Shown piece by piece: positions 139 to 64,000 of a stretch of 64,000 bases of DNA; position 1 is the first letter of the stretch, and each line of letters begins with the position of its first letter. The notes under the pieces are model-generated. The model did not search any database, was not told the DNA's origin, and saw only the letters and a list, made by a program, of their open reading frames with translations. Source of the DNA: Candidatus Doudnabacteria bacterium (GTDB taxonomy: Bacteria > Patescibacteriota > Doudnabacteria > UBA920). The stretch lies in the NCBI GenBank assembly GCA_003151625.1, contig PLYC01000013.1:93210-157209 (forward strand), written 5' to 3'. A program made the position numbers and the translations under genes.

Positions 139-1701
139 ATGGTATCAAACAAATCTCCTTTAGTAAACAACTATTTCCTCTACGCCCGTAAATCCACTGA
201 CGTGGAAGACAAACAGGTTTTATCCATTGAAGCTCAATTGTCAGAATTACGTACATTGGCAAAGGGGCAGTCCCTAAACATTATTTGTGAGTTCGTGGAA
301 AAACAGTCGGCCAAATCTTTAGGTCGTCCTGTTTTTAACGATATGCTCGCACGGATTGGGAAAGGAGAAGCCCAAGGACTTGTCAGTTGGAAACTAGACA
401 GACTAGCCCGCAATCCAGTCGACGGCGGCCAGATAAGCTGGATGCTGCAGCGCGGAATACTCCAGCATATCCAAACCAATGAGCGGAGCTATTACTCAAC
501 TGACAATGTTCTTCTTATGAGCGTGGAGTTCGGCATGGCCAACCAGTTTATCTTGGATTTGAGCAGTAACACAAAACGTGGTCTTAGGGAAAAAGTCAGA
601 CGCGGTGACTTCCCCGCTCTGGCTCCTATCGGCTATCTTAATGACCCAAGAACTAAGACAGTTGTTATTAACAGAAAAAAAGCCGAGCTCATTAAAAGGG
701 CTTTTGAGATTTATTCTCAAAACAATTCCCGGCTGGAAGATATATCTACCTTTTTAGCCGAACATGGCCATGTTTCAAGCTATGGAAAGCCGTTGAGCCG
801 TGATCAAATTACAATGTTCCTTTCTAACCCTTTTTATTATGGTCACTTTCGATATATGGGCGAAGTCTATGAAGGACGGCATAAGCCGATTGTTACTAAA
901 CAGCTTTGGGATAAGGTGCAGGTAGTTTTAAAAGACCGCGGTCGTGTTCATAAGAGCCCGTATAACGATCCAAGGCCATTCTGCGGTCTCCTTCGCTGTG
1001 GCCAGTGTGGTTGTGCTATCACGGGCGAGAACAAGACAAAATATCAAAAAAATGGCACAACCCACCATTATGTGTATTACCGCTGTACAAGGAAGAAGGG
1101 TATTTGCCGGGAACTTGCCGTTCGTGACGAAGTTTTGGATTTGCAACTTACAAACATTCTTAAGGATTTTGTTATGCCACCGGATTGGGCCGAAACTTTG
1201 GAAAAAATGGCCGACAAACACAGTCAGCAGTCAGCACATTCCACTGCGGGGTTTGTTCAAGACTTGCGGTCAAAGGTTTTGGATATTGACCGCAAGCTCC
1301 AAAGGCTTCGAGACATCTACCTTGACCAGGATATTGAACGGGATGAATACCTAAAAGACAAGAATACCTTGATGTCCGAAAAGAAGTCTTTGGAGGGGCA
1401 GATAGCCCGTTTTGAGCAAAACCAGAATGCTTGGCTCGCACCTCTCAAAAATTGGCTGAAAGACGCAGAAACATTGGGCGAAATAACGCTTTCGCCCGAA
1501 CTGCACCCCAAAAAACTCTTTGCCCAAAAAATCTTCGGCTCGCACCTGTTCCTTCAAAATCAAAAAGTTGTTTTCACCCCACAAAAACAATGGGCGGCCG
1601 TTAAGGCCGCCCGTGCAAAAGTGGGGAAAGTCCCCTTGAGTTGTATAGTGGAGCCCACTATCGGATTTGAACCGATCACCTGCTCCTTACCATTAGGGTA
1701 A
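139..1701 (+). CDS. large serine recombinase (resolvase/invertase N-domain + recombinase domain + zinc ribbon)
   Basis: N-terminal YARKSTDVEDKQVLSIEAQ, a catalytic Ser-recombinase-like motif. Cys cluster CGQCGCAI...YRCTRKKGICR. 520 aa. The C-terminal 18 aa are encoded by the att/tRNA-derived repeat. Confidence 0.85.
   Translation: MVSNKSPLVNNYFLYARKSTDVEDKQVLSIEAQLSELRTLAKGQSLNIICEFVEKQSAKSLGRPVFNDMLARIGKGEAQGLVSWKLDRLARNPVDGGQISWMLQRGILQHIQTNERSYYSTDNVLLMSVEFGMANQFILDLSSNTKRGLREKVRRGDFPALAPIGYLNDPRTKTVVINRKKAELIKRAFEIYSQNNSRLEDISTFLAEHGHVSSYGKPLSRDQITMFLSNPFYYGHFRYMGEVYEGRHKPIVTKQLWDKVQVVLKDRGRVHKSPYNDPRPFCGLLRCGQCGCAITGENKTKYQKNGTTHHYVYYRCTRKKGICRELAVRDEVLDLQLTNILKDFVMPPDWAETLEKMADKHSQQSAHSTAGFVQDLRSKVLDIDRKLQRLRDIYLDQDIERDEYLKDKNTLMSEKKSLEGQIARFEQNQNAWLAPLKNWLKDAETLGEITLSPELHPKKLFAQKIFGSHLFLQNQKVVFTPQKQWAAVKAARAKVGKVPLSCIVEPTIGFEPITCSLPLG
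1647..1688. repeat. 42-bp direct repeat (left copy), identical to the 3' portion (anticodon loop to CCA) of the minus-strand tRNA-Thr at 26196-26237; putative att site
   Basis: Exact match agtggagcccactatcggatttgaaccgatcacctgctcctt at both positions. The reverse complement contains T-arm GGTTCAAATCC, the acceptor 3' strand and CCA. Confidence 0.85.
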
Positions 1702-1884
1702 GATGGAAATAATATCCATTTTCACCCTAGATGGTAAGGGATTACTGGAAAAAAGATTTAAAAAGTTATGCCGTTACAGTGAGCAACTCCCTGCACAAAA
1801 TTCAGGGACGAAATCCAAGAATAAAAGCTACTGCAACAAACTTATTTAAGTGCTTTTTTAATGTTCTATTTAAATCATAGCACA

Positions 1885-2835
1885 CTAAATTAAATTTTCC
1901 ATATTGGCCAAAGACTCCACGTCGGGCCGCAAGGTATGGGTTGGCAGACAGCGCAGATAGACTTCCGTCATGCGCAAATCCGTATGCCCAAGTAACTGCT
2001 TAAGCGCGGCCAAACTTCCTCCGTTCGCCAAAAAGTTTACGGAGAATGTATGCCGGTATTGGTGAACATGAAATTTCACGCCCGAACCCTCAATCACTTT
2101 GTTTACAAAATGTTTGAAGCCGTCAAAACTTAGGCGTTGGTCCCGGCTGTTGGACACAAACAGGTACGGATTTTTATAGTCTTTTTCTTTACGGGCTTTT
2201 AGGTAATCAACTAATAATTTATACGCGGCCGAATTTATGGGAATAAAGCGATCCCTCCTGGACTTGGAAGTTTCCCCCCGCACATGGAGTTCGCGTTTTT
2301 CCAAATTCAAATCAAGCACCTTAAGTTGTATTAATTCCCCTCTCCTAACGCCGGTGTTAAGCAGGGTGCCAATAAGAGCCATACTCCTTTTTTGTATGAA
2401 TGGGCTATGCCAATCAATGTTAAGACTTACGGCTAGCCAAATCCGTTCCAGTTGTTGCTTGTTCAGGAATTTTCTGTCGCTGTAAATAATCCGAGGGTAG
2501 CGCATATGCTTAAATGGATTATCGGCCAGGTATTTATTTTGTACCAGCCAATCAAAAAAACTATTTAATTTTGACCGGTATGTACCAATGGTGCTAATCC
2601 TGACGCCATTCCTTATTTCCCCTTTTCCGACAACTCTGTCGCGCTGTTCCAGGCGTTTGAAGAATTCGTTTAGAGTTTTGATAGTTAGCGTGTTTAAATC
2701 TACCCCAGGCATAAGCTTTTGGAACAATTCAAACGTCGCCACGTATCCTCTAATTGTGGCCGGTGAGCGCCGGGTTGAATACCGGCGCTCGTTCACAAAC
2801 TCCTGGTGGAGTTCGGTTAAATCTCTATTCTTCAT
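1885..2835 (-). CDS. tyrosine recombinase/integrase (XerC/D-phage integrase family)
   Basis: C-terminal HQYRHTFSVNFLANGGSLAALKQLLGHTDLRMTEVYL (R..H..R/H..Y catalytic box). 316 aa. Confidence 0.85.
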   Translation of the reverse strand: MKNRDLTELHQEFVNERRYSTRRSPATIRGYVATFELFQKLMPGVDLNTLTIKTLNEFFKRLEQRDRVVGKGEIRNGVRISTIGTYRSKLNSFFDWLVQNKYLADNPFKHMRYPRIIYSDRKFLNKQQLERIWLAVSLNIDWHSPFIQKRSMALIGTLLNTGVRRGELIQLKVLDLNLEKRELHVRGETSKSRRDRFIPINSAAYKLLVDYLKARKEKDYKNPYLFVSNSRDQRLSFDGFKHFVNKVIEGSGVKFHVHQYRHTFSVNFLANGGSLAALKQLLGHTDLRMTEVYLRCLPTHTLRPDVESLANMENLI

Positions 2836-3808
2836 TTGGATCTCCTTCGGGTAGGCTTGCTACTTTAGCCTCTATAACTTCCGGTTCGGCTTCCTCCGGT
2901 TCGTTTAGCCATCTGGCGACATGCCTTTTGACGCTCCTAAGGTTTAGTAATACCCTGGCAATGTTAATTGCGCCTATATCTGCCGGGTTATAGTTTTGCA
3001 GATGGGTTATAAGCTTTCGGGAGGCATCGCTGATTTTTTCCGCTGGTTCCATGGCGGCACTAATGGCGTCACTAACTGGCGTGGGCGAGTAGTTGGGAAT
3101 AATTTTTGACATCTGGGCATTAACCGCAAATTCGTCTAAGCCCGTGTAATCAACATTCATTATTTCCACGCCTTGGTCCGGGTATTGCACCAACGCTCTT
3201 TTAACCGCCATCGCGCTTTCTTTGGACTGGAACTCTTCGGCAATTATTTTTTCTTCCATCTCTTCCTTAAAGTCTTCCGGGATGTCTTTTAAGGCGCGGG
3301 CGTAGCTAGAGGGTATACCTTTTTCGGTTATGGCTTTTTTCATAACAGGAGAAAGATCAAGTAGACTTAATTTCTCATGCACATAGCTTTCGGACTTACC
3401 TACAGCGTGGGCAAGTTCAGTAATGCCTTTGTCATTGTGACCACCACTCCCTTTTTTTGCCTTGGCAGGAGTGATTAATGAAAGCATCTGATGTAGTGCT
3501 TTGGCTATATCCATATCGGGCATGGAATTTTGGATCAAGTTTTCTATAACCTGTCTTTGAAACCGGGCGCTGGCGTTTTCTGGATTAACTTCGCGGCAGG
3601 GTACAGTTTTTAATCCTGCTTTTTTGGCTCCTTCGTAACGGACGTGACCGGTGACAATGACAAAATTATTGTCAATTTCTATGGGATTAATAATCCCTTG
3701 AGCCGCAATACTCCTGGCCATATCAGCGACCGCCGCAGGGTCAATCTTGGAACGCGGCTGGTTTGGATCGGGTTTAATTTTCCCAATCTGTACTTCTTTG
3801 ATGTTCAT
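2825..3808 (-). CDS. ParB-like nuclease (ParB N-terminal/Srx) domain protein
   Basis: GHVRYEGAKKAGLKTVPC resembles the ParB box GxRRxxAA..G..xVP. Overlaps the integrase gene by 11 nt (operon). Confidence 0.65.
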   Translation of the reverse strand: MNIKEVQIGKIKPDPNQPRSKIDPAAVADMARSIAAQGIINPIEIDNNFVIVTGHVRYEGAKKAGLKTVPCREVNPENASARFQRQVIENLIQNSMPDMDIAKALHQMLSLITPAKAKKGSGGHNDKGITELAHAVGKSESYVHEKLSLLDLSPVMKKAITEKGIPSSYARALKDIPEDFKEEMEEKIIAEEFQSKESAMAVKRALVQYPDQGVEIMNVDYTGLDEFAVNAQMSKIIPNYSPTPVSDAISAAMEPAEKISDASRKLITHLQNYNPADIGAINIARVLLNLRSVKRHVARWLNEPEEAEPEVIEAKVASLPEGDPNEE

Positions 3809-4693: not shown

Positions 4694-5397
4694 TTTGAGT
4701 TTAGGGCATTAAAAAACCCCGCTAAAAACTAAATATCGCGCTATCGCGTATAACTTAGTTTCTGCGGAGGGACAAATTACCCTTGCCTAGATGTATATTA
4801 CTTCAGAACACTTTGCTGACAGTTTCATCGCCCTTTAAGCCCGTAAGCTTTAAAGTGGAGGCCGTAGCCAACCTTAGAATGACATTTTCAGCTGTTTTTC
4901 TGTTGTTGAATATAACAGTAAACCCAATATTTGATTGTTAATACTAAGTATACACCCTAATTAGCAATCTGTCAAGAGGAGTGCTAATAAATATATTAAA
5001 ACTATTTGATTCATTGATGTTTTATTTGCGGAGAAGTGGCACCCATGCCCTAGTTTTTAGTGAATTATCCACAATTTTTTGGAGCCTTAAGGACAGTTCA
5101 TCGAGCTTTAAGGTTTCTTTACGGTTTTAGAATATAACAGCTTTATAAAATTACCAGAAAACCTATAATTGGACGAAAATTGCAAAATTGCAAATACGCC
5201 TCCCACCATAACGCCCATCCCTGGCATTTAACTACTTTAAGCCAAACTACTCCCCTACCCGGTTCCTATACTTTAATCCCTTTTTCCCAGAATATATTCT
5301 AGAAACAAAAATATTTTCAGGCTAGACCTGATTAAGCGTTCCCTGACCGGCATCGTAAACAAGCCGGTCTTTTTTAATTCTTAACTTTATAAATCTA

Positions 5398-6114: not shown

Positions 6115-6585
6115 ATGAACTATGTTATAAGCCTTAACTGTAAAGTTGACGCCAGAAATCAAGAAGAGGCCAAAGCCAAGGCGCTGATGAATATCCAGGT
6201 TAGAGAAGCCGCACCTTTAATGCTTGCGCCTCTTGATGTTTATGAGTGTCTAGAAAAATACCGAAAAAAGCAGAAGGAATATTTTATTACCTGCCTCCTT
6301 GATACGCAAAATAACCTCCTGGGCTTTAAGGTTATTGCCGTCGGCACATTAAATACTTCGCTGGTGCATCCGCGCGAAGTATTCAGGCCTGCGATAGCCG
6401 CCAACTGCGCCAGTATTATTGTGGCGCACAACCATCCATCGGGAACATTGGAGCCGAGTCCCGAAGATGTCCAAGTCACCAAAAGGCTCAAGGAGTCAGG
6501 TAAATTGATAGGAATTGAACTCACGGATCATGTCATCATAACCATGTACGGCTTTTATAGCTTCCGCGAACATCACCTGCTCTAA
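6115..6585 (+). CDS. RadC-like JAB/MPN domain protein
   Basis: JAMM motif AHNHPSGTLEPSPEDV (HxHx7Sx2D). Confidence 0.8.
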   Translation: MNYVISLNCKVDARNQEEAKAKALMNIQVREAAPLMLAPLDVYECLEKYRKKQKEYFITCLLDTQNNLLGFKVIAVGTLNTSLVHPREVFRPAIAANCASIIVAHNHPSGTLEPSPEDVQVTKRLKESGKLIGIELTDHVIITMYGFYSFREHHLL

Positions 6586-7245: not shown

Positions 7246-7977
7246 TTATTTTGGTTCCTGCTCACTAACAACCAAGGTTTTTAGCAATTCTTCAATCTGC
7301 TGGCGGTCTTTTGGGAAATGGTAAAAAGGATGGGAGGCAATAAGCTTTTGAATCCATTGTTTTTGAATAATATAGGTATTTTCCAGAGGTTTAAGTCCAA
7401 AAGTTATTTTAGCTCTGGAAAACACTATTGTCGGTTTTATATAAATTTCTACTCCCAGTTTTTCTTTAAGAAAGTTATGCAGGGACAAAGCCTGGGACTT
7501 GGATTGCCATAAAAAGTTTTTTTCCAGCAGTTGGCCATATCTGGTTAGCTGGGAGCCATTAAAGCCTATTATGCCTTTGTGGCTTTTAACTTCTATGGTA
7601 AATATTCCGGTTGGCCCGACAAGCACAAAGTCTATATTCCCCTGCTCTGGCTTAATAACGACATCGGCAAATACGGAATAAGCGTCCGGTAGTTTTTTAA
7701 GTTCATAGGCAACTACATCTTCCCCTTTTAACCCCTGAAAAAATTTGTCAGCCATCCCGTCCTCTTTGTCAATTAGTTTTTTTATAACCCAAAAGAGCGG
7801 AGCAAAAACAATAATAGAAATTATTATGTAGCCGGGCTGGGATGTATGGCCGACTAATTTGGTAAAATATTCGTATAAAGCCCAAAGGCCGACTAAAGCG
7901 TATAACAAAACCGCGACCACAGAAACCCAGGCCATACGGATGGAATACTTACTTCGGTTGCCAAAAAATTGAGCCAT
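7246..7977 (-). CDS. NERD (nuclease-related domain) membrane protein
   Basis: N-terminal TM helices then DVVIKPEQGNIDFVLVGPTGIFTIEVKSHKG, NERD-like. Confidence 0.55.
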   Translation of the reverse strand: MAQFFGNRSKYSIRMAWVSVVAVLLYALVGLWALYEYFTKLVGHTSQPGYIIISIIVFAPLFWVIKKLIDKEDGMADKFFQGLKGEDVVAYELKKLPDAYSVFADVVIKPEQGNIDFVLVGPTGIFTIEVKSHKGIIGFNGSQLTRYGQLLEKNFLWQSKSQALSLHNFLKEKLGVEIYIKPTIVFSRAKITFGLKPLENTYIIQKQWIQKLIASHPFYHFPKDRQQIEELLKTLVVSEQEPK

Positions 7978-9962: not shown

Positions 9963-10157
9963 TTAAAATTTTTTAGCTTTTAGTCTATTATTGGCAAAAT
10001 GCAAAGTAAAAGCCGAACCTGACGGCCGGGAAATTCCAAGCCGCGTGTCCATATAAAAACAGCGCGGACAGTCTAAGAACGTGCCAATCTTGCCCCGGCT
10101 TGGCTTAAAGAGCTTGTCGGTCGCTTGATCGAATAAATAGTTTCTTTTGCTTGGCAT
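9963..10157 (-). pseudogene. truncated paralog of the N-terminus of the Cas4-like nuclease at 15434-16177
   Basis: MPSKRNYLFDQATDKLFKPSRGKIGTFLDCPRCFYMDTRLGISRPSGSAFTL vs MAYKRSNLYEPEADKPFKLSRSKIDMFLDCPRCFYMDRRLGISRPSGPAFTL. ~85% DNA identity over ~150 bp. Confidence 0.6.
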
Positions 10158-10158
10158 A

Positions 10159-10806
10159 TTAGGATGCCAATAATTTTGTTACCCAATCGTTGAAATGTGG
10201 GCAATTATTTCTAATTTCCTGCAAACCGGTTCTGGAAGCTATTAGGCTGCCAAAAAGTGGCTTTCTATAGTTTGGGAAAAGTTTTATAAGTCTTTTGCTT
10301 GGATGAGTTTCCGGACCTTGGTTTATTTCCTCGGGAGTTTTAAAGGCATCTCTTATATTTTGCACATCCTGTTTTTTATTCCGATCCAAAGTATCGGAAA
10401 TAACTTCTGGTACTGAAAAAAGCAGGCCTTCAAACTCGTGAAGTTGCAAATAAGGAATGAAGCGTTCATTATTGATGTCGTTAGCAAAAGCCTGTTCCGC
10501 CGCTTTAACTTTATCGTAGCAAGAACCTTCATTTTTCCAATTTGGAAAGTCGGCAGGCAGGCCATAAAAATCCATCATCGTGGTTACCGCGGTAACATTT
10601 GAGTCCCTGAATAATTTTTTTGCATCGCGCTTTATGGCTCCATACGAACTTACGCCGCCCTTAAAATTTGGACTATTTTTAAGTATTTTTGTATTAATTA
10701 TGGTTGGAATTAAAAACAGACCCTGCTCCTGGAAGGTAGGGTTTAAAATATCTTTTACGAACCGTTCCTCAGTTTGTCCTTCGACTAAGATAAAAATTCT
10801 TTTCAT
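10159..10806 (-). CDS. DUF4276-like protein (partner of AAA_21 ATPase; possibly Toprim/OLD-like)
   Basis: N-terminal MKRIFILVEGQTEERFVKDIL, a characteristic DUF4276 start. 8-nt gap to the ATPase gene. Confidence 0.55.
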   Translation of the reverse strand: MKRIFILVEGQTEERFVKDILNPTFQEQGLFLIPTIINTKILKNSPNFKGGVSSYGAIKRDAKKLFRDSNVTAVTTMMDFYGLPADFPNWKNEGSCYDKVKAAEQAFANDINNERFIPYLQLHEFEGLLFSVPEVISDTLDRNKKQDVQNIRDAFKTPEEINQGPETHPSKRLIKLFPNYRKPLFGSLIASRTGLQEIRNNCPHFNDWVTKLLAS

Positions 10807-15433: not shown

Positions 15434-16177
15434 TTATGTAACTTCTACTAGCTGAGATTTTTTTCTATACTGGCAGAATTCGCATTCCGGGTTAGGAGCA
15501 GGGAGACTGGCTTGGTTTAAGCAATCGTGAATATTAAAAATTGTTTGCTCTACCCAGGAGTCCGAGCCGGTGTAAGGGATTAGTTTAGCGTCAAATTCCA
15601 ATACGCCATTAAAGCCTGCCCTGTCTTTCTTGCCGTTCACATAAAAAAAGTAACCGATGTTAGAAACTTTTAAACCATTTTGTCTTAACAGCCACTGGTA
15701 GACTTCCATTTGCCTGCGGTAGGAGTTATGCCACTTGGCATCCGTTAACTCTACCTCACCCTCTTTGCTGGTGGCCTTATAATCCACCACAATGTATTCT
15801 CCTTCCGAGTTTTTCCACAAATCATCAATGGCTCCAAAAATTAACATATTGGTTTTTTTGTGGAGGCACTGCACGCCGGTAAAATTATGCCGCCACTGGT
15901 CTAAAAGCTCATGAGCTACAGGCACAGCGTCCAGGCCGTAGGCTTCCATAAGCGGATGTTTGGTTCCATTGGCGCGGTAGACATCAAATTCTTTTTTCAA
16001 CAAAGCGTCCACGGCAACGTTCAAAGTAAAAGCCGGACCGGATGGTCGGGAAATTCCAAGCCGTCTGTCCATATAAAAACAGCGCGGGCAGTCTAAAAAC
16101 ATGTCAATCTTGCTCCGGCTTAGCTTAAAGGGCTTGTCGGCTTCGGGCTCGTATAGGTTGCTTCTTTTATAGGCCAT
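15434..16177 (-). CDS. Cas4-like/RecB-family PD-(D/E)xK nuclease with 4-Cys cluster
   Basis: N-terminal DCPRCFY, IVVDYKAT (D..K), C-terminal CEFCQY. 247 aa. Confidence 0.6.
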   Translation of the reverse strand: MAYKRSNLYEPEADKPFKLSRSKIDMFLDCPRCFYMDRRLGISRPSGPAFTLNVAVDALLKKEFDVYRANGTKHPLMEAYGLDAVPVAHELLDQWRHNFTGVQCLHKKTNMLIFGAIDDLWKNSEGEYIVVDYKATSKEGEVELTDAKWHNSYRRQMEVYQWLLRQNGLKVSNIGYFFYVNGKKDRAGFNGVLEFDAKLIPYTGSDSWVEQTIFNIHDCLNQASLPAPNPECEFCQYRKKSQLVEVT

Positions 16178-16185
16178 TTTAAAGT

Positions 16186-25252: not shown

Positions 25253-26158
25253 TTATAGATTATTCAGCGGGTGTTTCGTGATTTGTGCCCGCAGATGTTC
25301 AGCCGTCGCGCTTAAATAAATTGTCGTGGTCTTGATGTCCGAATGGCCCATCATTTTGCTTAGGCTGTAAATGTCGCACCCACCTTCCAACATTAAAACC
25401 GCAAACGAATGTCTAAGTTTGTGAATTCCAAAGTTTATTTTGCTGGCTTTTTTTATAATCTCCACTAAGTTGCGCAGGCCCATTTGGGTAAAACCCATAT
25501 TCCGGTTTAACGAAGCAAAGAATTCCGGGCAGGTTTTATGTATTCTCTTTCTTTCAACCACGTATCTTTTTAAAGTTTCCGCCAGGGCAAAACAGATTGG
25601 AATCATTCTGTCTTTGTTGCCTTTCCCCTGCCGGACAAAGATTGTAAGGTTTTCCAAGTCTACATCCGCGAATTTTAAGTTTAGCAATTCGCCTTTGCGG
25701 AGCCCGGCCATTATAAATGTGGCAAAAATTGCGTGGTTGCGGTAACGCAGGTATTTATATTGGTACGGGTAATTGTAGACCACTTCCAGCAGTTTCATTG
25801 TCTGCTGTTTTGTCAGCTTGGGTGGCAGCCGCTTTTCTAACTTTGGAATTTCTATTTTCTCCGCGTAATTTTCAGGCATGTATTTCTCTTTGACGCACCA
25901 GCGGAAAAACACAACCAGACTTTTAATAAAGTTAATGTAGGTATTTGTACTCCAATTTCGTTCTGTGCGGCCATAGAAAAACAGCTTCCGGATATTCTCT
26001 TCGTTTATCTGCTCAAACTCGGTGACATTGCAATATTTGCAGTAATAGTTAATAACAAACCTATACCGTCTGATTGTGGCTTTGGCGTATCCTCGTATAA
26101 ACGAGGAATAGTCATAGAACTTTAGGGCCGCTAATTGTATGTCCATATATACCTCCAA
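25253..26158 (-). CDS. tyrosine recombinase/integrase adjacent to tRNA
   Basis: HKLRHSFAVLMLEGGCDIYSLSKMMGHSDIKTTTIYL catalytic box. 301 aa. ~40 bp from the tRNA 3' end. Confidence 0.85.
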   Translation of the reverse strand: MEVYMDIQLAALKFYDYSSFIRGYAKATIRRYRFVINYYCKYCNVTEFEQINEENIRKLFFYGRTERNWSTNTYINFIKSLVVFFRWCVKEKYMPENYAEKIEIPKLEKRLPPKLTKQQTMKLLEVVYNYPYQYKYLRYRNHAIFATFIMAGLRKGELLNLKFADVDLENLTIFVRQGKGNKDRMIPICFALAETLKRYVVERKRIHKTCPEFFASLNRNMGFTQMGLRNLVEIIKKASKINFGIHKLRHSFAVLMLEGGCDIYSLSKMMGHSDIKTTTIYLSATAEHLRAQITKHPLNNL

Positions 26159-26195
26159 AATAAAAACACTGCATAAACTTGTTGCAGTGCTTTTA

Positions 26196-26237
26196 AGTGG
26201 AGCCCACTATCGGATTTGAACCGATCACCTGCTCCTT
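26196..26237. repeat. 42-bp direct repeat (right copy) = 3' exon of tRNA-Thr; putative att site
   Basis: Identical to 1647-1688. Confidence 0.85.
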
Positions 26238-26460
26238 CACTTCTACCTCAATTTCGTAAATCTTATATGAGGGTTAGACTGTATATTTTTCCCGGCGCCG
26301 GGAAACCCTTGTCAGTCGTTCGGGCGATTGCTCGCCACGGTCTTGACCCGTGAGGGCTATTAACCGTTATTCGGGATTCGCTTTGAAATTACTTTCAGAG
26401 TGGGCATGAACATAAGCTGTTCTCACCATGGAGCTGCTCTACCAAATGAGCTAAGTGGGC
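26198..26460 (-). tRNA. tRNA-Thr(GGU), interrupted by a ~186-nt intervening sequence in the anticodon loop (putative intron)
   Basis: Minus strand: GCCCACT-TA-GCTC-ATTTGGTA-GAGC-A-GCTCC-ATGGTGA..[~186 nt]..GGAGC-AGGTG-ATCGG-TTCAAAT-CCGAT-AGTGGGC-T-CCA. All four stems are perfectly paired. Confidence 0.55.
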
Positions 26461-26602
26461 TTACAACGGCATGAGATTTTGAATGAACTTTTTTTGAGCC
26501 CGCGACCATCTCCCTGCGGGAGGTGCTCATGGGCTTTTCTCTTTTTGTGATTTTGCTCTTATATTAGAGCAAATCCCTGATAACAAGGTAGACTGCCTTT
26601 TT

Positions 26603-26638
26603 ACCATGGAGCTGCTCTACCAAATGAGCTAAGTGGGC
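26603..26638 (-). repeat. second tandem copy of the tRNA-Thr 5' half (acceptor, D-arm, anticodon stem 5' strand + GGT AA)
   Basis: 36-nt identity to 26427-26460. No T-arm or 3' half follows it. Confidence 0.55.
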
Positions 26639-46794: not shown

Positions 46795-48501
46795 ATGGAC
46801 CACACCTTATTTTACCAGCTCACGGGCGTGCTTTTAATAGCCGGGCTCATTGCCGTCTTAATTAGCGTCCTTAAGCAGCCCAGCGTGCTGGCGTTTATTT
46901 TAACCGGCATTTTGGTCGGTTATTTTGGGTCTACGCAGCTCCACGCGACTGCGGTTTTTTCGGATTTGGGCGAGATTGGCATTACCCTATTGCTTTTTAT
47001 GGTCGGTTTGGAACTAGATGTGGGCAGGTTAAAAGAGCTTGGAAAGGTAGTGGTTGTTACCGCTATTGGACAAATTTTAGGCAGCAGTATTTTGGGATTT
47101 GTCTTTGCCCGACTGTTTGGTTTTAACTTTCAGGCCTCGGTATTCATTGCCGTGGCTCTGACTTTTACTTCTACCATCATTGCCGTAAAGCTTTTAAGCG
47201 AAAAAGGCCAGCTGCAAAGCCTGCACGGCCGGATTGCCGTGGGTTGCAGCATTGTCCAGGATTTTGCCGCGCTGGTCCTTTTGATGTTTTTGGGCAGCTC
47301 AACCAATTCTTCAATAATCCCCTCTGCTTTGCCCGGTTGGCAGCTGGCGGTGATTACGCTGGTTCGGGCTTTAATTTTGTTTTTGCTGCTGCTTGTTGCC
47401 AGCAAAAAAGTTTTGCCCTGGGTTTTAAAATTTTTGAGCAAAAACGGCGAACTGCTTTTGTCGTTTTCTTTGGCCTGGGCTTTGGGTATGGCGGCTTTTG
47501 CCTCTTTGCCCCTGGTGGGTTTTAATTTTGAAATTGGCGGATTTTTAGCCGGCCTGGCTTTGGCCAATTCCCAGGTGCACTGGGAAATCGCGGCGAAGGT
47601 TAAATCTATCCGCGACTTTTTTATTATTATCTTTTTTATAGTTTTTGGTTCTCAGCTGGCTTTTGGCAACGTTTGGGCGCATTGGCCGCAAGTGGCGGCT
47701 TTTTCCGTTTTTATGCTGGTTGTAAATCCTTTTTTGGTTTTGCTCTTGCTTACGAGGCAGGGCTACAAATCCAAAACGGCTTTTTTGGCCGGCAGCGTGG
47801 TGGTTCCTATGTCGGAGTTTAGTTTTATTTTGGCGGCTTTGGGCAGCCGCAGCGGGCAAATTACCCAGGAGGTCGCCAGCTTAATTACTTTGGTCGGGCT
47901 AATAAGCATTGCCTGTTCTTCTTACATAATTATCCATGCCGAAAGACTGTATGTTTTATGGAAACCGGTTTTAAAATATTTTGAACCAAAAAATGGTCTG
48001 GCCGAAATTGCTTCGGACACGGTTTTAAAAAATCACGTAATTTTGGTGGGCGCCCACCGCTTGGGCAGGCATTTAATAGCCACACTGGAAAAATCCAAAA
48101 AGGCATTGGTAATAGTAGATATTAACCCCGATGTCACGGCCGAGTACGCGGCCACGGGCTTAACCGTGGTCTGTGGGGATATTACTGAAGGTTACATTCA
48201 GGACCAGGTAAATTTGGCCGAAGCCAAAGTGATTATTTCCACTGTTCCGGATTTCCAGGATAATCTTTCTTTGCTGGAAGCTGTAAAAATAAAAACAGCC
48301 AACCGCAGAAGCAAGCCCAAACTTATTTTTGCCGCCCAAACCGAAGCCGAGGCCAAAAAACTCTACGAGCAGGAAATAGATTACGCCCTATCCCCTCACT
48401 TTATTAGCGGCCTGCATCTGGCGAAAATCCTGCGCGGCACGGATAATTTTAAGGAACTGAAAACCCTGCGCGAACAACATTTGAAGGTTATAAGGGCCTA
48501 G
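46795..48501 (+). CDS. CPA2 monovalent cation:proton antiporter with C-terminal RCK/TrkA-N domain
   Basis: ~12 TM. ILVGAHRLGRHL Rossmann segment. Confidence 0.8.
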   Translation: MDHTLFYQLTGVLLIAGLIAVLISVLKQPSVLAFILTGILVGYFGSTQLHATAVFSDLGEIGITLLLFMVGLELDVGRLKELGKVVVVTAIGQILGSSILGFVFARLFGFNFQASVFIAVALTFTSTIIAVKLLSEKGQLQSLHGRIAVGCSIVQDFAALVLLMFLGSSTNSSIIPSALPGWQLAVITLVRALILFLLLLVASKKVLPWVLKFLSKNGELLLSFSLAWALGMAAFASLPLVGFNFEIGGFLAGLALANSQVHWEIAAKVKSIRDFFIIIFFIVFGSQLAFGNVWAHWPQVAAFSVFMLVVNPFLVLLLLTRQGYKSKTAFLAGSVVVPMSEFSFILAALGSRSGQITQEVASLITLVGLISIACSSYIIIHAERLYVLWKPVLKYFEPKNGLAEIASDTVLKNHVILVGAHRLGRHLIATLEKSKKALVIVDINPDVTAEYAATGLTVVCGDITEGYIQDQVNLAEAKVIISTVPDFQDNLSLLEAVKIKTANRRSKPKLIFAAQTEAEAKKLYEQEIDYALSPHFISGLHLAKILRGTDNFKELKTLREQHLKVIRA

Positions 48502-48517
48502 TTACTAAGATTTTTTT

Positions 48518-48553
48518 GTAACCATTTTAACGTGGCCACGCTAAAATGGTTAC
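48518..48553. repeat. 36-bp GGCC-centred palindrome (family member 1)
   Basis: gtaaccattttaacgtggccacgctaaaatggttac. Confidence 0.7.
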
Positions 48554-48562
48554 GCATAGTTT

Positions 48563-49081
48563 ATGCCAAGAAGCATAAAACTTAAAATCACCGAAGCAAT
48601 GCTCAAAGCAGTTTGGGACGCTTTTTCTAATTTTGGTGATCATTCGGAATACATTCAAGATAAATATGATTGTTCAAGCCAGTACTATCGCAATTCTCTT
48701 TCCCGATTAAAGAAGCGAGGGCTAATTAAAGTTGTCTCCAAACAAGGAAAAAAATTTATTGAATTGACCAAAAATGGCGAGCTAAAAGTTTTGTTAAGTA
48801 TGGCTGAACTTGAAAAAACCGACGCTTGGGATGGCAAGTGGAGGCTAATAATTTTTGATATTCCTGAAGACGCAGATATTCAAAGAGACAAGTTAAGAAA
48901 ACTTTTAAAACAGCACCAGTTTTTTAAATTGCAAGCGAGCGTTTACATTAATCCTTATCCTTTGAATCGTCAGGCTCTTGATTACTTGAGACAAAGTGGC
49001 TTAATTGATTATATACGGATTTTGCGTGTCGACGACATAGATTTTGACTTGGATTTAAAAAGAAAATTTAAACTAAAATAA
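48563..49081 (+). CDS. PaaX-like regulator C-terminal domain protein
   Basis: WDGKWRLIIFDIPEDADIQRDKLRKLLKQHQFFKLQASVY. Confidence 0.55.
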   Translation: MPRSIKLKITEAMLKAVWDAFSNFGDHSEYIQDKYDCSSQYYRNSLSRLKKRGLIKVVSKQGKKFIELTKNGELKVLLSMAELEKTDAWDGKWRLIIFDIPEDADIQRDKLRKLLKQHQFFKLQASVYINPYPLNRQALDYLRQSGLIDYIRILRVDDIDFDLDLKRKFKLK

Positions 49082-49082
49082 T

Positions 49083-49118
49083 GTAACCACTTTGACGTGG
49101 CCACGTCAAAGTGGTTAC
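49083..49118. repeat. 36-bp perfect palindrome (family member 2)
   Basis: gtaaccactttgacgtggccacgtcaaagtggttac. Confidence 0.7.
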
Positions 49119-49161
49119 AGATAAAATTGACCTTACCATTAATTTTCTTTAAACTAACCCT

Positions 49162-53574: not shown

Positions 53575-53607
53575 AATGAATCAATCATAGCAAATTAAAT
53601 TAAAAAG

Positions 53608-53649
53608 TGTGTAACCACTTTGGCGTGGCCACGCCAAAGTGGTTACACA
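53608..53649. repeat. 42-bp perfect palindrome (family member 3)
   Basis: tgtgtaaccactttggcgtggccacgccaaagtggttacaca. Confidence 0.7.
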
Positions 53650-53673
53650 GTAAAATAGTTCCAAACATCAAAA

Positions 53674-61961: not shown

Positions 61962-63023
61962 ATGAAACTAAAATACTGGGCAATTATAATATTAGCAACC
62001 GCCGCAGTTTGCGCCGGAGTCTTTTATTACCTTAACCAACCCGCGCCGGACTTGGGTCCGGTTGTGGTTCATCACGCGTTAAAATCGGAATCTCCTCCCA
62101 CTCCCCAACCTTCCGCTTCTTCATCGTCGGCAGACATTAGCGCGATATCGTTCCCGAGCGCAGTTGAGGGGTGGAAGACATATACCAATAGTCAGTATGG
62201 GTTTTTTGTCTCTTATCCTGACAATTTGGAAGTAACGGAAGGCAAGAAGGATAATTCCGTGTCATTTTCCGATCCAAAATATAATGATCTGCCATCTATT
62301 TTGACTATCTCTGTTGAACAATCTACTAAACAATATTTGGGAACTCAGCAGCAAATGCTTTTAGCGCTTGCAAAGGATCAATTAGGGGGAAATTTTTCTT
62401 CACTTAGGCGTTATCAAGGTAATGAGATAATAGTTGACTCGCTAGACATTTATGGCGTGCACTCATACATTTACGATTCGAGCTTAAATTTGTTCGCTTC
62501 GATTATTGGACGTGATTCTGCGGATGATAATAATGATTTGTATAATAAGATTTTATCAACTTTTCAATTTACCCAACCCCAAGCCGGCGCCAGCGTGACA
62601 ACGTCCCCGAGCGCAGTCGTGGGGTGGAAGACATATGTGAGTAGTGACTATGGGGTTGAGTTTGATTACCCGGCGGATTGGACTATAGGGATTGATTCGT
62701 ATGATCAGTCTATCTCTATTAATGAGCCGGGAGATGATTTGGGTGATGGCAGTATCGGTATCTCAAAAAATTTGTATACTAAAGAAGCCGTTCTTGCTCA
62801 AATAAATCAGGATCCAGAAGTCCAAATTATTGGTCAGACTACAGAGGTATATAACAATTTAAACTGGTCTAAAGTAACAACTAAAGAAAAAGCATCGGGA
62901 CATATTGGTATAGATTATTTTAATAAAAAAAATAACGATACAGTAACTATTGCTTATTTCTATTACCCTACACAAGAAATGGTAGTGAAAAAAGTCTTAA
63001 ACTCTTTTAAATTTACAAAATAA
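61962..63023 (+). CDS. secreted/membrane-anchored protein with repeated GW(K/Q)TYxNSxYG..YP.DW modules
   Basis: Signal-anchor MKLKYWAIIILATAAVCAGVFYYL. Two internal repeats. Confidence 0.5.
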   Translation: MKLKYWAIIILATAAVCAGVFYYLNQPAPDLGPVVVHHALKSESPPTPQPSASSSSADISAISFPSAVEGWKTYTNSQYGFFVSYPDNLEVTEGKKDNSVSFSDPKYNDLPSILTISVEQSTKQYLGTQQQMLLALAKDQLGGNFSSLRRYQGNEIIVDSLDIYGVHSYIYDSSLNLFASIIGRDSADDNNDLYNKILSTFQFTQPQAGASVTTSPSAVVGWKTYVSSDYGVEFDYPADWTIGIDSYDQSISINEPGDDLGDGSIGISKNLYTKEAVLAQINQDPEVQIIGQTTEVYNNLNWSKVTTKEKASGHIGIDYFNKKNNDTVTIAYFYYPTQEMVVKKVLNSFKFTK

Positions 63024-63029
63024 CATTTC

Positions 63030-64000
63030 ATGAAACCAAAATACCGGGCAATTATAATATTAGCAACCGCCGCGATTTGTGCTGGTGTTGTTTATTATCT
63101 AGATCAACCCATTTCTGATTTGGGACCGATTACGATTCATCATGTGGTAAAAACCGCAGTAACTCCCTCATTTGGCACTTCTTCATCGTCAATAGATATC
63201 AGCGGCTGGCAGACTTATACTAATAGCCAGTATGGGTTTGAATTAAAATATCCCGTCGATTGGCAGGATGTAAATGGCACCGGACAGGGTGAGATACTGG
63301 ATATTGTTTACCAAAGAAATAAAGCTACACACGCGGAAGGTGTTGGGTATTCTTATCCCGGAGAGATTTTTTTGAGAGGAATTACAAAAAAATCAATTCT
63401 CGTTCCTTACGGTTCAACTCCGCCAGCAAACTTTTTGGATTTTGCGAAAGAGTACGATGTCTCGGGTTTAGATAACCAGGGAAACGTAGTGCCGCTTATG
63501 GCAATTGACGGTCACCAGGCAGTGCAGATTAATGCACCTGACAATCTCACTGGCCCTGATAAAGGATTAGTGCCAAATATTACACTATTGATTGATTATT
63601 CATCCGATTCTGTCATTTGGGTTGAAGTTAATTATTTTTACGAAAATAAGGATTATGTTTCAAAAACTTTTAATCAAATCCTTTCAACTTTTAAATTTAT
63701 TGCTCCGGTCACACCCCCTACAGCTCAAACCGACACGAGTGGGTGGAAGACATATACCAATAGCCATGACGGTTATCAGATACAGTATCCTTCAGATATA
63801 TCAACATCTTATTCAAATGGTGATTTAAGATTGCAAAACTACCCCTCCACAGAAGATAATTTTAAGAGCGGAGAGTTCTTTATGGATATTTTTGCGACAG
63901 ACATCGAAACTGGCTTCAAAAGCCATATCGATAATGTCCAAACTTACCAATTTGGTAACGCGACCGGTTATGGCGGCGGTCGAGCAGATGCGGACATAAG
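63030..64000 (+). CDS. paralog of the preceding secreted repeat protein (partial, runs off window)
   Basis: MKPKYRAIIILATAAICAGVVYYLDQP... with GWQTYTNSQYGF and GWKTYTNSHDGY modules. Confidence 0.5.
   Translation, partial: MKPKYRAIIILATAAICAGVVYYLDQPISDLGPITIHHVVKTAVTPSFGTSSSSIDISGWQTYTNSQYGFELKYPVDWQDVNGTGQGEILDIVYQRNKATHAEGVGYSYPGEIFLRGITKKSILVPYGSTPPANFLDFAKEYDVSGLDNQGNVVPLMAIDGHQAVQINAPDNLTGPDKGLVPNITLLIDYSSDSVIWVEVNYFYENKDYVSKTFNQILSTFKFIAPVTPPTAQTDTSGWKTYTNSHDGYQIQYPSDISTSYSNGDLRLQNYPSTEDNFKSGEFFMDIFATDIETGFKSHIDNVQTYQFGNATGYGGGRADADI

Follow-up and report, generated by a model that had tools for sequence, protein, structure and literature searches.

The locus lies on the minus strand of the window, by which we mean the whole 64,000-nt stretch of DNA analysed, and comprises pieces of tRNA-Thr(GGU), two tyrosine recombinase genes and a block of mostly defence-type genes between them. 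Its features are the following.

26601-26638, minus strand: orphan 5' part of the host tRNA-Thr(GGU), positions 1-38, with 36/36 identity to the island copy
26607-26601, minus strand: predicted attL core ATGGTAA, the end of the orphan 5' part
26461-26600, minus strand: P' arm, 140 nt between the core and the island tRNA, absent from the related contig L089
26425-26460, minus strand: 5' exon of the proposed island replacement tRNA-Thr(GGU), 36 nt, positions 1-36, U36 last
26238-26424, minus strand: insert assigned to the 'divergent group I' type of group I introns, 187 nt, between U36 and A37
26198-26237, minus strand: 3' exon of the same tRNA, from A37 to the encoded CCA
26162-26190, minus strand: putative terminator, a hairpin and T-run (GCACTGCA..TGCAGTG TTTTT) after the tRNA and upstream of the recombinase gene
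25253-26146, minus strand: Int1, tyrosine recombinase (Pfam Phage_integrase, 6.6e-28, and a SAM-like N-domain)
2836-25252, no strand assigned: island cargo, mostly defence-type genes (Pfam, PADLOC), absent from the empty site in L089
1885-2835, minus strand: Int2, second tyrosine recombinase, 316 aa (Pfam Phage_integrase, 6e-32), at the right end of the island
1694-1884, minus strand: P arm (right arm), 191 nt, with two inverted copies of ACCCTA(G)ATGGTAAGG
1693-1687, minus strand: predicted attR core ATGGTAA, the start of the orphan 3' part
1649-1693, minus strand: orphan 3' part of the host tRNA-Thr(GGU), positions 32-76, an exact 42-nt repeat with ATGGT before it

Joining 26460-26425 to 26237-26198 on the minus strand gives a 76-nt tRNA-Thr(GGU) in which all four stems are perfect and which ARAGORN calls, in agreement with the first-pass annotation, which had recognised this tRNA in two halves with an insert between them. 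The existence of the insert stands, although its size and position had to be corrected from about 186 nt at 26236-26426 to 187 nt at 26424-26238. ARAGORN in default mode called no tRNA over the whole 64-kb window, and Rfam at the gathering threshold gave no match in the entire window. In intron mode ARAGORN detected the gene, but labelled it 'tRNA-His(gtg)' and shifted the border; this border was discarded in favour of U36/A37 on the basis of the rule of a U at the exon end and a G at the insert end, and of the intronless orphan and empty-site sequences. A second identical 5' half, which had been noticed about 180 bp upstream, was confirmed at 26638-26603; it matches the island 5' half at 36/36 positions, 178 nt apart, where the number of chance matches expected is 0. 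It extends through A37 and A38 to 26601, which completes an intronless anticodon loop ATGGTAA (26607-26601), and beyond A38 the sequence is unrelated. The earlier view that this half has no matching 3' half does not hold, because an exact 42-nt copy of the island 3' exon lies at 1688-1647. It is preceded by ATGGT, so that 1693-1649 corresponds to an intronless tRNA-Thr from position 32 to position 76, and the two 42-nt copies form a direct repeat that brackets Int1 and Int2.

The island occupies window positions 1694-26600 (24.9 kb). The att core had been placed at the exon/intron border, which needs refinement, as the core is the 7-bp loop ATGGTAA itself and the intron sits inside it (ATGGT/AA). 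Such a coincidence is to be expected, as this core would be overlapped by any intron in the anticodon loop. The attL junction reads ...CCATGGTAAaaaggcag and is without the 3' strand of the anticodon stem; no tRNA is rebuilt there, since the host 5' part runs into the 140-nt arm and not into the 3' half. The P' arm begins with a motif resembling a recombinase half-site, AAAGGCAGTCTACC (consensus in the relatives, TAAACAGGTCTAC), and a second conserved motif, ..GATGGTCGCGGGCTCAAA, lies near its end at about 26510-26493. Within the island, 140 nt separate the complete tRNA gene from the left end; the gene points the same way as the host gene, and Int1 follows closely downstream of it. The hairpin at 26162-26190 was passed over by a consensus terminator scan because its loop exceeds 8 nt, and a homologous hairpin follows the tRNA in the related loci L090 and L017/L019/L020. 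A scan for sigma-70 promoters returned no sigma-70-like promoter and was uninformative. The ten large cargo ORFs that were compared match defence and restriction families (Pfam, PADLOC). Among the cargo genes are those for a DrmD-like SNF2 helicase, a type IIG/ISP restriction-methylase, a Ppl-like PHP-ATPase and a Cas4-like nuclease, together with HEC-01 A+B, PDC-S11 and a ParB-like protein. Exact-protein look-ups with EF-Ts and Int1 gave no matching record. At the other end, the length of the P arm agrees with the distance from Int2 to the core in relatives, which is about 200 nt in L045 and 216 nt in L073. The right-end half-site, ..CTTACCCTA/ATGGTAA, is not an inverted repeat of the left half-site; a symmetric core-flanking site is present in relatives such as L045/L052. 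Neither an internal attP-like junction (ATGGTAA with half-sites) nor a symmetric left half-site was found in the window. Given this asymmetry, Int2 may be the protein that binds the right end; alternatively, the island may be a composite or may have lost the ability to excise.

The borders were set by comparison with the metagenome contig L089, which comes from a relative and not from the same strain (nucleotide identity about 78-80%). This contig carries the empty site, where rpsB, tsf and a TPR gene are followed by an uninterrupted tRNA-Thr without intron, whose sequence is that of the spliced window tRNA, and the sequence after this tRNA is homologous to window positions 1693-1247. The homology between window and contig ends on the left at 26601 and starts on the right at 1693, and the overlap is exactly ATGGTAA, 7 bp. 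The 42-nt direct repeat was considered as the island border and discarded, as the homology breaks at 26601 and 1693; that the repeat begins with the 3' exon is due solely to the presence of a whole tRNA gene on the island. In another relative with the same chromosomal neighbourhood (L090), an intact intronless tRNA is followed directly by the sequence found upstream of Int1, which indicates that other junction types exist in the lineage.

[quoted passage not shown] A tyrosine recombinase would have inserted the island site-specifically into the 7-bp loop ATGGTAA of an intronless host tRNA-Thr(GGU), leaving the parts of the host gene stranded at the island ends (the 5' part at 26638-26601 and the 3' part at 1693-1649). 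The host gene would not be rebuilt, because island and target share only 7 bp, and the island tRNA-Thr(GGU) gene (26460-26198) would replace the lost function. Int1, probably together with Int2, would have catalysed the integration, and the host presumably needs the replacement tRNA, which may be transcribed after integration from the host tRNA promoter just upstream.

The same arrangement recurs elsewhere. Among the 80 relatives of Int1 kept from 196 found (57-69% identity; 71% in the truncated L073), the Int1 homologue lies about 40 nt downstream of a tRNA-Thr(GGU) in 22 loci. The tRNA in the related loci carries an intron of 192-221 nt in 11 cases (12 with the 187-nt intron of the window) and none in 10. 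About half of the islands are without an intron. In at least 17 related loci an orphan 5' half stands 112-148 nt upstream of the complete tRNA, always followed by xTGGTAA, the conserved half-site and an alignable spacer; the spacers of the 22 loci can be aligned end to end and measure 112-148 nt. Each of the 17 related loci with an orphan half has a matching complete tRNA gene. The orphan and the island gene of L016 are both of the Thr(CGU) type, so that the replacement has the anticodon of its target. In 18 orphan/replacement pairs (these 17 loci and the window), the orphan differs from the 5' half of the complete gene by 2-11 nt in 12 pairs, four intron-bearing and eight intronless, which makes them host and element copies rather than local duplicates. 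The closest Int1 relatives point to CPR/Patescibacteria as the possible host group. An Int2 homologue accompanies the Int1 homologue in more than 40 of the 80 loci. Moreover, L045, L052, L060 and L077 are unrecombined, in the order Int2, about 200 nt, C-ATGGTAA, about 130 nt, tRNA and Int1. When the reconstructed attP arms were compared with the related loci by BLASTN, only the tRNA and intron aligned, the arms being too diverged. On the sequences compared, the layout is common to at least 17 unrelated loci, with the intron present or absent.

The first-pass annotation had also considered scars of successive integrations and excisions that left a pseudo 5' half. That the half is a product of integration is borne out by the data, whereas the succession of events is not, since one event suffices and the partner of the half lies 24.9 kb away. 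In its fuller form this explanation supposes a composite island, in which an element of the Int2 type, with a classical attP of 47 nt from the tRNA 3' half, and one of the Int1 type, with a replacement tRNA, were both directed at this gene and the internal junctions were deleted later. It accounts for two different tyrosine recombinases at opposite ends, for a right half-site that differs from the left one and recurs as an inverted copy near Int2, and for the other junction type in the related chromosome of L090. However, the co-occurrence of Int1 and Int2 homologues in more than half of the loci, with one unrecombined core between them in the four loci named above, speaks for a joint unit, and the small element L073 has the same order of Int1, Int2 and attR as the window. 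In addition, the island holds no internal att-like junction and every feature is explained by one integration, so that we regard a composite origin as improbable. Still less probable is a local tandem duplication, by slippage or unequal crossing-over, within a chromosomal tRNA gene that already contained the intron, the island then being of the classical type at the tRNA 3' end. The identity of the 5' halves (36/36) at a distance of only 178 nt and the exact 42-nt 3'-half repeat around Int1 and Int2 would fit it. But the left-flank homology with L089 stops at 26601 and not at 26237, which makes the spacer and the intron-containing gene part of the insertion; the ATGGT upstream of the distant copy denotes an intronless gene; the halves differ in 12 of the 18 pairs; and the spacer is homologous across unrelated hosts. 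The '5' half duplicated in tandem' of the first-pass annotation is thus an identical half indeed, although not of tandem origin: it is the 5' portion of the host gene itself.

The single-integration reading leaves the nature of the insert to be considered. It folds as follows, all helices being on the minus strand.

26427-26422 / 26408-26403: P1
26399-26393 / 26388-26382: P2
26375-26373 / 26308-26306: P3, CCC/GGG
26367-26362 / 26342-26337: P4
26357-26354 / 26349-26346: P5
about 26336-26332 / 26327-26323: P6
26317-26313 / 26281-26277: P7, GACUG/CAGUC
26305-26302 / 26291-26288: P8, which reaches UUUCCCGG/CCGGGAAA in the window copy
26272-26268 / 26250-26246: P9
26238: terminal G of the intron, present in 12/12

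The comparison set consisted of 12 homologues, namely the window copy and eleven from other genomes. The P1-P9 fold is common to all of them, with 97.1% of cells paired against 33-44% when the partners are slid (RNAalifold, pair counts), and compensatory changes occur at 35 pairs. P1, P2, P5, P6, P8 and P9 covary among the 12 homologues, and P4 and P6 covary after viral homologues join the alignment. P3 and P7 are invariant yet always pairable and agree with the fold, covariation being no proof for them. The helix order, P3-P4-P5-P6-P7-P3'-P8-P7'-P9 with a P3/P7 pseudoknot, matches that of group I, and the insert has long invariant core segments besides the covarying helices. The MFE z-score of the insert is -4.3. 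At the 5' splice site a U36·G wobble (alignment columns 36/58) is found in 12/12; G34-C and G35-C adjoin it, while the remaining P1 pairs covary. At the other end, the intron-terminal G directly precedes AA(G/T)G in 12/12. The GC-rich stem ccgggaaaccc/gggtttcccgg that had been pointed out in the insert corresponds to P8. The intron core is also present in phage protein-coding genes (6 viral copies), which indicates that the family is not confined to tRNA-Thr. RF00028, the Rfam group I model by which a check of the insert had been suggested, gave no match at the locus, either at E<=1 on 1 kb or at E<=10 on 281 nt, and Rfam at permissive E-values gave no group I match at these introns in 8 related and 6 viral loci. 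As judged from covariation, a group I intron of 187 nt separates U36 from A37, and it presumably splices itself out to give a normal tRNA. The group I-like intron in the anticodon loop proposed by the first-pass annotation is supported by this fold and by published reports of the family (PMC13011429; bioRxiv 10.1101/2025.07.03.662931).

The bulge-helix-bulge (BHB) intron offered there as an alternative found no support, in view of the 36/37 site (BHB introns canonically lie at 37/38), the exon-U/intron-G rule and the conserved P1-P9. The BHB splicing endonuclease is an archaeal and eukaryal enzyme, which likewise tells against a protein-processed insert. That the interrupted gene is a dead pseudogene with a non-splicing insert, whether a decayed element or one of the protein-processed BHB type, and supplies no working tRNA-Thr is hardly credible: the missing Rfam match to group I or tRNA would suit it, but the tRNA stems are 98-100% paired across 12 loci with many compensatory changes, the invariant core and the covarying helices stand in group I order, exon-U and insert-G ends occur in 12/12, and published work puts this intron type in group I, although splicing in vitro concerned the Asn/Asp relatives alone (PMC13011429).

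The intron itself is not new, for by description it fits the 'divergent group I' introns published from tRNA-Thr(GGU) of Patescibacteria/CPR (Castelle 2018, as summarised in bioRxiv 10.1101/2025.07.03.662931); a further source on this family is tFind (Williams 2020, bioRxiv 10.1101/2020.01.27.920355). The published family occurs in tRNA-Thr GGU only, is spliced right after the anticodon and ends in G (PMC13011429; 10.1101/2025.07.03.662931), and it is missed by RF00028 and detected by the gpI_bact_tRNA model (Nakagawa et al. 2026, PMC13011429), with GCA_001029635.1, GCA_016700375.1 and GCA_030583745.1 among the examples (PMC13011429). Compared by description, the window intron shares with them the tRNA-Thr(GGU) host, the 36/37 site, the terminal G, a length of about 190 nt and the group I-like fold, and it is similarly unseen by RF00028 and poorly called by ARAGORN. 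Unlike in the published accounts, every copy here is island-borne and lies beside a tyrosine recombinase, in a sample that was collected via a recombinase search. The words 'integrase', 'island' and 'recombinase' had 0 matches in the part of the intron paper's text that was searched, and the intron core strings are absent from the supplement text of PMC13011429.

A strategy with replacement tRNAs has been shown experimentally in mycobacteriophages (Guerrero-Bustamante & Hatfull 2024, mBio, PMC10865867). As in this tRNA-dependent lysogeny, the enzyme is a tyrosine integrase (Int1 and Int2 by Pfam), attB lies within a tRNA gene, the common core is too short for the tRNA to be rebuilt (7 bp here and 8-10 bp there; PMC10865867), and the loss can, as predicted here, be complemented by an element-borne tRNA with the same anticodon. 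The island appears to work like tRNA-dependent lysogeny without being a member of it, as the window element is not a recognisable phage, let alone a temperate one; its cargo is of defence type, and searches with Int1 and Int2 in IMG/VR found distant relatives only (23-32%) and none close. It further differs in that two tyrosine recombinases flank attP, the replacement gene is immediately beside the core and oriented with the host promoter, and a group I intron lies inside the crossover core in half of the relatives.

Classical islands at tRNA genes carry only the 3' part of the tRNA and rebuild the gene at the junction. Williams is said to have distinguished in 2002 sublocation classes of such islands, including crossover in the anticodon loop. 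The present island resembles them in having a tyrosine recombinase gene next to the tRNA and a 7-bp overlap that coincides with the anticodon loop, between the two strands of its stem; unlike in them, no functional tRNA arises at the junction and a further, complete tRNA gene is brought along. For Archaea, Randau and Soll reportedly put forward in 2008 the idea that tRNA introns and split tRNA genes protect against integrating elements. A related model is given by Sugahara et al. (2012, PMC3293823). As in the archaeal idea, an anticodon-loop intron divides a recombinase target in two; unlike there, it is a bacterial group I intron and not of the BHB type, and it resides in the tRNA copy of the mobile element and not in the host gene.

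Tentatively, and with more doubt than confidence, we suggest that the intron is kept in the replacement tRNA since it splits the recombinase target. Dividing the 7-bp core as ATGGT/AA would set the half-sites 187 bp apart, and the island tRNA gene could then not be used as attB by its own recombinases or by competing elements; recombination by the island's own recombinases at its own tRNA gene would delete the 140-nt arm. The orphan is identical to the island 5' half in 6/10 intron-bearing and 0/8 intronless loci (Fisher p about 0.013), a count that includes L026 by eye (before, 5/10 vs 0/8, Fisher p = 0.036) and treats loci that are not phylogenetically independent. Furthermore, the intronless replacement genes of L006, L016 and L059 show odd changes in the presumed half-sites, GTAGAGC becoming GCAAAGC or GTAAAAC, and AGGTC becoming AGAGC, AGACC or GTGTC. 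Intron-bearing loci are scattered over a rough Int1 tree, and the host alleles in the present sample are necessarily intronless, which is an ascertainment bias. If this reading is true, a self-splicing intron serves a mobile element as a mask of its att site, and a host retaining the interrupted copy after loss of the island would be immune to re-integration.

The CPR tRNA-Thr intron and the phage replacement tRNAs are each known, and their combination is undescribed in the literature searched. Loci of this kind are missed by standard tools, as seen from the window, where no tRNA was called; tRNA-Thr would then be counted as absent, which would bias estimates of genome completeness, and island finders that expect a rebuilt tRNA would set the border off by about 400 bp. 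Horizontal transfer of endonuclease-less tRNA introns was judged infrequent in a recent survey (PMC13011429). If the published tRNA-Thr introns are generally island-borne, a vehicle for their horizontal spread would be identified, and island carriage would explain why they are reported from tRNA-Thr(GGU) only and from MAGs labelled as several phyla. In that case, non-phage defence islands of Patescibacteria and other phyla, equipped with a pair of tyrosine recombinases, would join the actinobacteriophages as users of the 'disrupt and replace' integration strategy.

The tRNA-Thr(GGU) gene at one end of the 24.9-kb island is interrupted by an insert, and further copies of its halves and the genes of two tyrosine recombinases, Int1 and Int2, are found in the same window:

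26460-26425, minus strand: 5' exon GCCCACTTAGCTCATTTGGTAGAGCAGCTCCATGGT, read from the sequence
26424-26238, minus strand: insert of 187 nt (GAGAAC...GAAGTG), read from the sequence
26237-26198, minus strand: 3' exon AAGGAGCAGGTGATCGGTTCAAATCCGATAGTGGGCTCCA, read from the sequence
26638-26603, minus strand: second 36-nt 5' half, identical to the 5' exon (0 chance matches expected)
25253-26146, minus strand: Int1 tyrosine recombinase, adjoining the interrupted tRNA
1885-2835, minus strand: Int2 tyrosine recombinase, adjoining a distant 3' piece of the tRNA

When the exons are joined, all four stems of the resulting 76-nt tRNA-Thr(GGU) pair perfectly, its CCA is encoded, and ARAGORN accepts it. 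Neither ARAGORN in default mode nor Rfam at gathering thresholds found any RNA gene in the whole 64-kb window. The last base of the 5' exon is U and that of the insert is G. The split gene described in the first-pass annotation is confirmed, with coordinates good to within 2 nt. The upstream 5' half runs on into AA, so that the whole intronless anticodon loop ATGGTAA is present there. It had been taken for a tandem duplication with no matching 3' half; the 36 identical nucleotides are indeed present, but they are the host half stranded at the island junction, and a repeat search of the window shows that 42 nt of the 3' half recur without mismatch at 1688-1647, 24.5 kb off. This copy is preceded by ATGGT, so that 1693-1649 corresponds to positions 32-76 of an intronless tRNA-Thr, and the overlap of the upstream 5' piece (through A38) with the far 3' piece (from A32) is exactly ATGGTAA. 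Between the two host pieces are located Int1, Int2, a ParB-like gene and defence genes (DrmD-like SNF2 helicase, type IIG/ISP restriction-methylase, Ppl-like ATPase, Cas4-like nuclease, HEC-01 A/B and PDC-S11). A 169-nt direct repeat inside the island (9993-10161 and 16013-16181, 80% identity, 6 kb apart) flanks the HEC-01/PDC-S11/Cas4-like gene block. Elsewhere in the window, a near-perfect palindrome of ~36 bp, GTAACCACTTTGACGTGGCCACGTCAAAGTGGTTAC, occurs in three copies (48496-48561, 49061-49126 and 53589-53654) in an AT-rich context that looks intergenic, and several diverged direct repeats near the window's end (61962-63766; families D2, D3, D5 and D12, spacings ~450-1070 nt) resemble modules repeated within a coding region.

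Metagenome contigs were scanned for the junction unique to an intact intronless gene, GTAGAGCAGCTCCATGGTAAGGAGCAGGTGATCGGTTC, and two contigs were returned. The empty-site contig L089 is ~78-80% identical to the window and collinear with it over rpsB, tsf and a TPR gene (window 28797-26723); it carries an intact intronless tRNA-Thr equal to the spliced tRNA of the window, directly followed by the homologue of window 1693-1247. Its left-flank homology stops at window 26601 and its right-flank homology starts at 1693, with a 7-nt overlap, ATGGTAA, in L089. Thus, what was inserted into the anticodon loop is window 1694-26600 (24,907 bp), which includes the interrupted tRNA gene as well as the 140-nt spacer; neither belongs to the host. 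The left chromosomal flank is also present in contig Ga0182027_10027508 (L090, 1-110), where the hairpin found ahead of Int1 in the window comes immediately after an intact intronless tRNA-Thr and the contig ends. This stretch lacks an orphan half, an arm and an intron, showing that other junction forms exist in the lineage; this one is either a junction rebuilt in the classical way or the outcome of a secondary deletion. A large serine recombinase ORF (window 139-1701, plus strand, 520 aa, with Resolvase, Recombinase and Zn-ribbon domains) has its last ~18 codons antisense to the host tRNA-Thr 3' half and to a few island-arm bases. In L089, too, the homologous ORF borders on the tRNA, which is intact there, so this recombinase is not part of the island.

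Int1 has 196 relatives in one-genome-per-species contigs, of which the best 80 were used (57-69% identical, 71% in the truncated L073); they come from MAGs labelled Patescibacteria, Bacteroidota, Ignavibacteria and others. A tRNA-Thr(GGU) ends ~40 nt upstream of the Int1 homologue in 22 of these best 80, 11 with an intron of 192-221 nt and 10 without, while tRNA-Lys adjoins other relatives. At least 17 of the Thr loci have an extra 5' half 112-148 nt upstream of the complete gene, which always ends in xTGGTAA followed by a conserved motif (consensus TAAACAGGTCTAC), and the spacers in between can be aligned over their whole length. In 12 of 18 pairs (17 related loci and the window; 4 of the 12 intron-bearing, 8 intronless), the 5' half of the orphan differs from that of the complete gene by 2-11 nt, so that the two are alleles of host and element, not duplicates that arose locally; in L016, orphan and complete gene are each Thr(CGU). 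This element family thus disrupts tRNA-Thr and brings along a complete gene to replace it. A second conserved site (window 26493-26530, roughly GACCnGTTC-N7-AAACAGGTCnnCGGGTTCAaa) lies near the tRNA-proximal end of the arm and at the matching spacer position in L001, L003, L008, L013, L016, L026, L051 and L053. Its right half resembles a relic of the tRNA variable loop and T-arm (AGGTC-nnCGG-TTCA), and it may be a second recombinase-binding site or the fossil of an ancestral 3'-half attP. In addition, LOOT RNA (Rfam RF03000; 76-84 bits, gathering score 46), which is absent from the window, lies downstream of Int1 in three related islands:

L013, 2157-2278: LOOT RNA just after Int1
L021, 3762-3888, and L053, 6568-6698: LOOT RNA 2.4-2.7 kb further on

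Homologues of Int2 are found alongside Int1 in more than 40 of the 80 loci. The order in L045, L052, L060 and L077 is Int2, ~200 nt, GTAGACCTGTTTA|ATGGTAA, ~130 nt, tRNA-Thr and Int1, an unrecombined attP between the two recombinase genes; in L073 it is Int1 ... Int2, 216 nt, then ATGGTAA with the tRNA 3' half, an attR like that of the window. The window distances (191 nt from Int2 to core, 140 nt from core to tRNA) fit the attP layout. Judged by gene order in the window, these five loci and more than 35 others, Int1 and Int2 are a pair of different tyrosine recombinases travelling together. They flank the core before recombination and lie at opposite island ends once integration has taken place. 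In many Bacteroidota loci the two genes stand in tandem and no tRNA-Thr separates them; in some of these, Int1 is closely followed by a tRNA-Lys on the opposite strand. A XerC/XerD-like heteromer, with each recombinase on its own half-site, is one possibility. The right half-site of the window, CTTACCCTA, is not symmetric with the left one, and ACCCTA(G)ATGGTAAGG has an inverted second copy ~37 nt away at the right end; this side may be bound by Int2, or the island may be composite or immobile.

In the alignment of the 12 interrupted genes, variable stems lie between long blocks that do not vary (GAATCCCGAATAACGGTTAA, AGACCGTGGCG, CGCCCGAACGACTGACAAGGG and ATACAGTCTA). RNAalifold recovered the cloverleaf around the insert and, inside it, P1 (exon GGU with GCC, U36·G), P2, P4, P5, P6, P7, P8 and P9; the P3 pseudoknot (CCC/GGG) was added before pairs were counted. 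Paired cells amount to 97.1%, compared with 33-44% when partners are slid by 1-3 columns, and 35 of 67 pairs show compensatory change, values reached by 0 of 500 shuffles. P2, P5, P6, P8 and P9 covary, whereas P3, P4 and P7 are invariant among these genes; U36·G is found in 12/12 introns and the terminal G in all. The window intron folds 4.3 SD better than shuffles. The helix order P3-P4-P5-P6-P7-J7/3-P3'-P8-J8/7(AAGAUA)-P7'-P9 is that of the group I core, and J8/7 and P7 resemble the Tetrahymena R/S elements. On this fold the insert is a group I intron; the Rfam group I model RF00028 matched neither it nor its tRNA-Thr relatives in any search. Moreover, an intron-anchored scan of IMG/VR with the pattern GACTGACAAGGG-N15-45-ATACAGTCTA matched six viral contigs, in which the core sits in protein-coding regions and not in tRNA genes:

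L091, 4400-4640
L092, ~3090-3330
L093, minus strand
L094, ~6270-6500
L095
L096, ~7450-7690

In L094 and L096 it interrupts an ORF starting MATYASSSS... (MATYASSSSSIAVLKELYVDNSDFMKDLVYAKQ). RF00028 had no match at the six copies, but 0.5 kb from the core in L091 it detected another group I intron, a canonical one, at 5099-5361. Given these viral copies, the family called "divergent group I" is not restricted to tRNA-Thr(GGU). When five of them were added to the alignment, P4 and the closing pair of P6 also showed compensatory changes; in P4, four sequences have U-A for A-U and one has G-C for U-A.

We infer that Int1 and Int2 would catalyse crossover within ATGGTAA, using flanking presumed half-sites similar to the tRNA sequences GTAGAGC... 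and ...AGGTC, that the pre-tRNA would splice itself, and that the replacement gene would substitute for the host gene; the host promoter may drive its transcription, as it lies 178 nt downstream and has the same orientation. Because the intron is inside the core (ATGGT|AA), the island's own gene offers no uninterrupted target, and the intron might act as an att-site shield that keeps this gene from serving as target, an idea we hold to be rather unlikely. Every intron in the anticodon loop can be expected to overlap the core, and roughly half of the islands are intronless, so the position alone proves nothing. Weak hints in favour are that the 5' halves of the orphan and the island gene do not differ in 6/10 loci with the intron, compared with 0/8 without it (counting L026, whose single difference is an alignment offset, as identical), and that the intronless replacement genes of L006, L016 and L059 have the D-arm GGCAAAGC or GGTAAAAC instead of GGTAGAGC and the variable loop AGAGC, AGACC or GTGTC instead of AGGTC, substitutions falling exactly at the presumed half-site positions. 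A rough neighbour-joining tree of Int1 does not separate elements with the intron from those without it; the two are interspersed.

The disrupt-and-replace logic is that of tRNA-dependent lysogeny in actinobacteriophages, where lysogens are viable only with a phage tRNA of the same isotype and the common core is 8-10 bp (PMC10865867), compared with 7 bp (ATGGTAA) here. Thr(GGU) introns at 36/37 have been reported in three complete Patescibacteria genomes as divergent group I, a type that Williams' tFind model detects but that escapes RF00028 and, in many cases, ARAGORN (Nakagawa et al. 2026, PMC13011429). As summarised in the preprint of that study (10.1101/2025.07.03.662931), Castelle et al. 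2018 described 15 introns, only in tRNA-Thr GGT, that end in G, are spliced directly after the anticodon and are undetected by Rfam; the window intron fits every point of this summary. Integrases, islands and orphan halves are absent from the available portions of Nakagawa et al. 2026 (PMC13011429) and of its preprint (10.1101/2025.07.03.662931), and no paper tying tRNA-Thr introns to them turned up in literature searches. The group I-like intron proposed for the anticodon loop by the first-pass annotation is correct, as the covarying fold in 12 interrupted genes indicates, yet already published; what is new is its combination with a replacement-tRNA island and the recurrence of this combination across many genomes.
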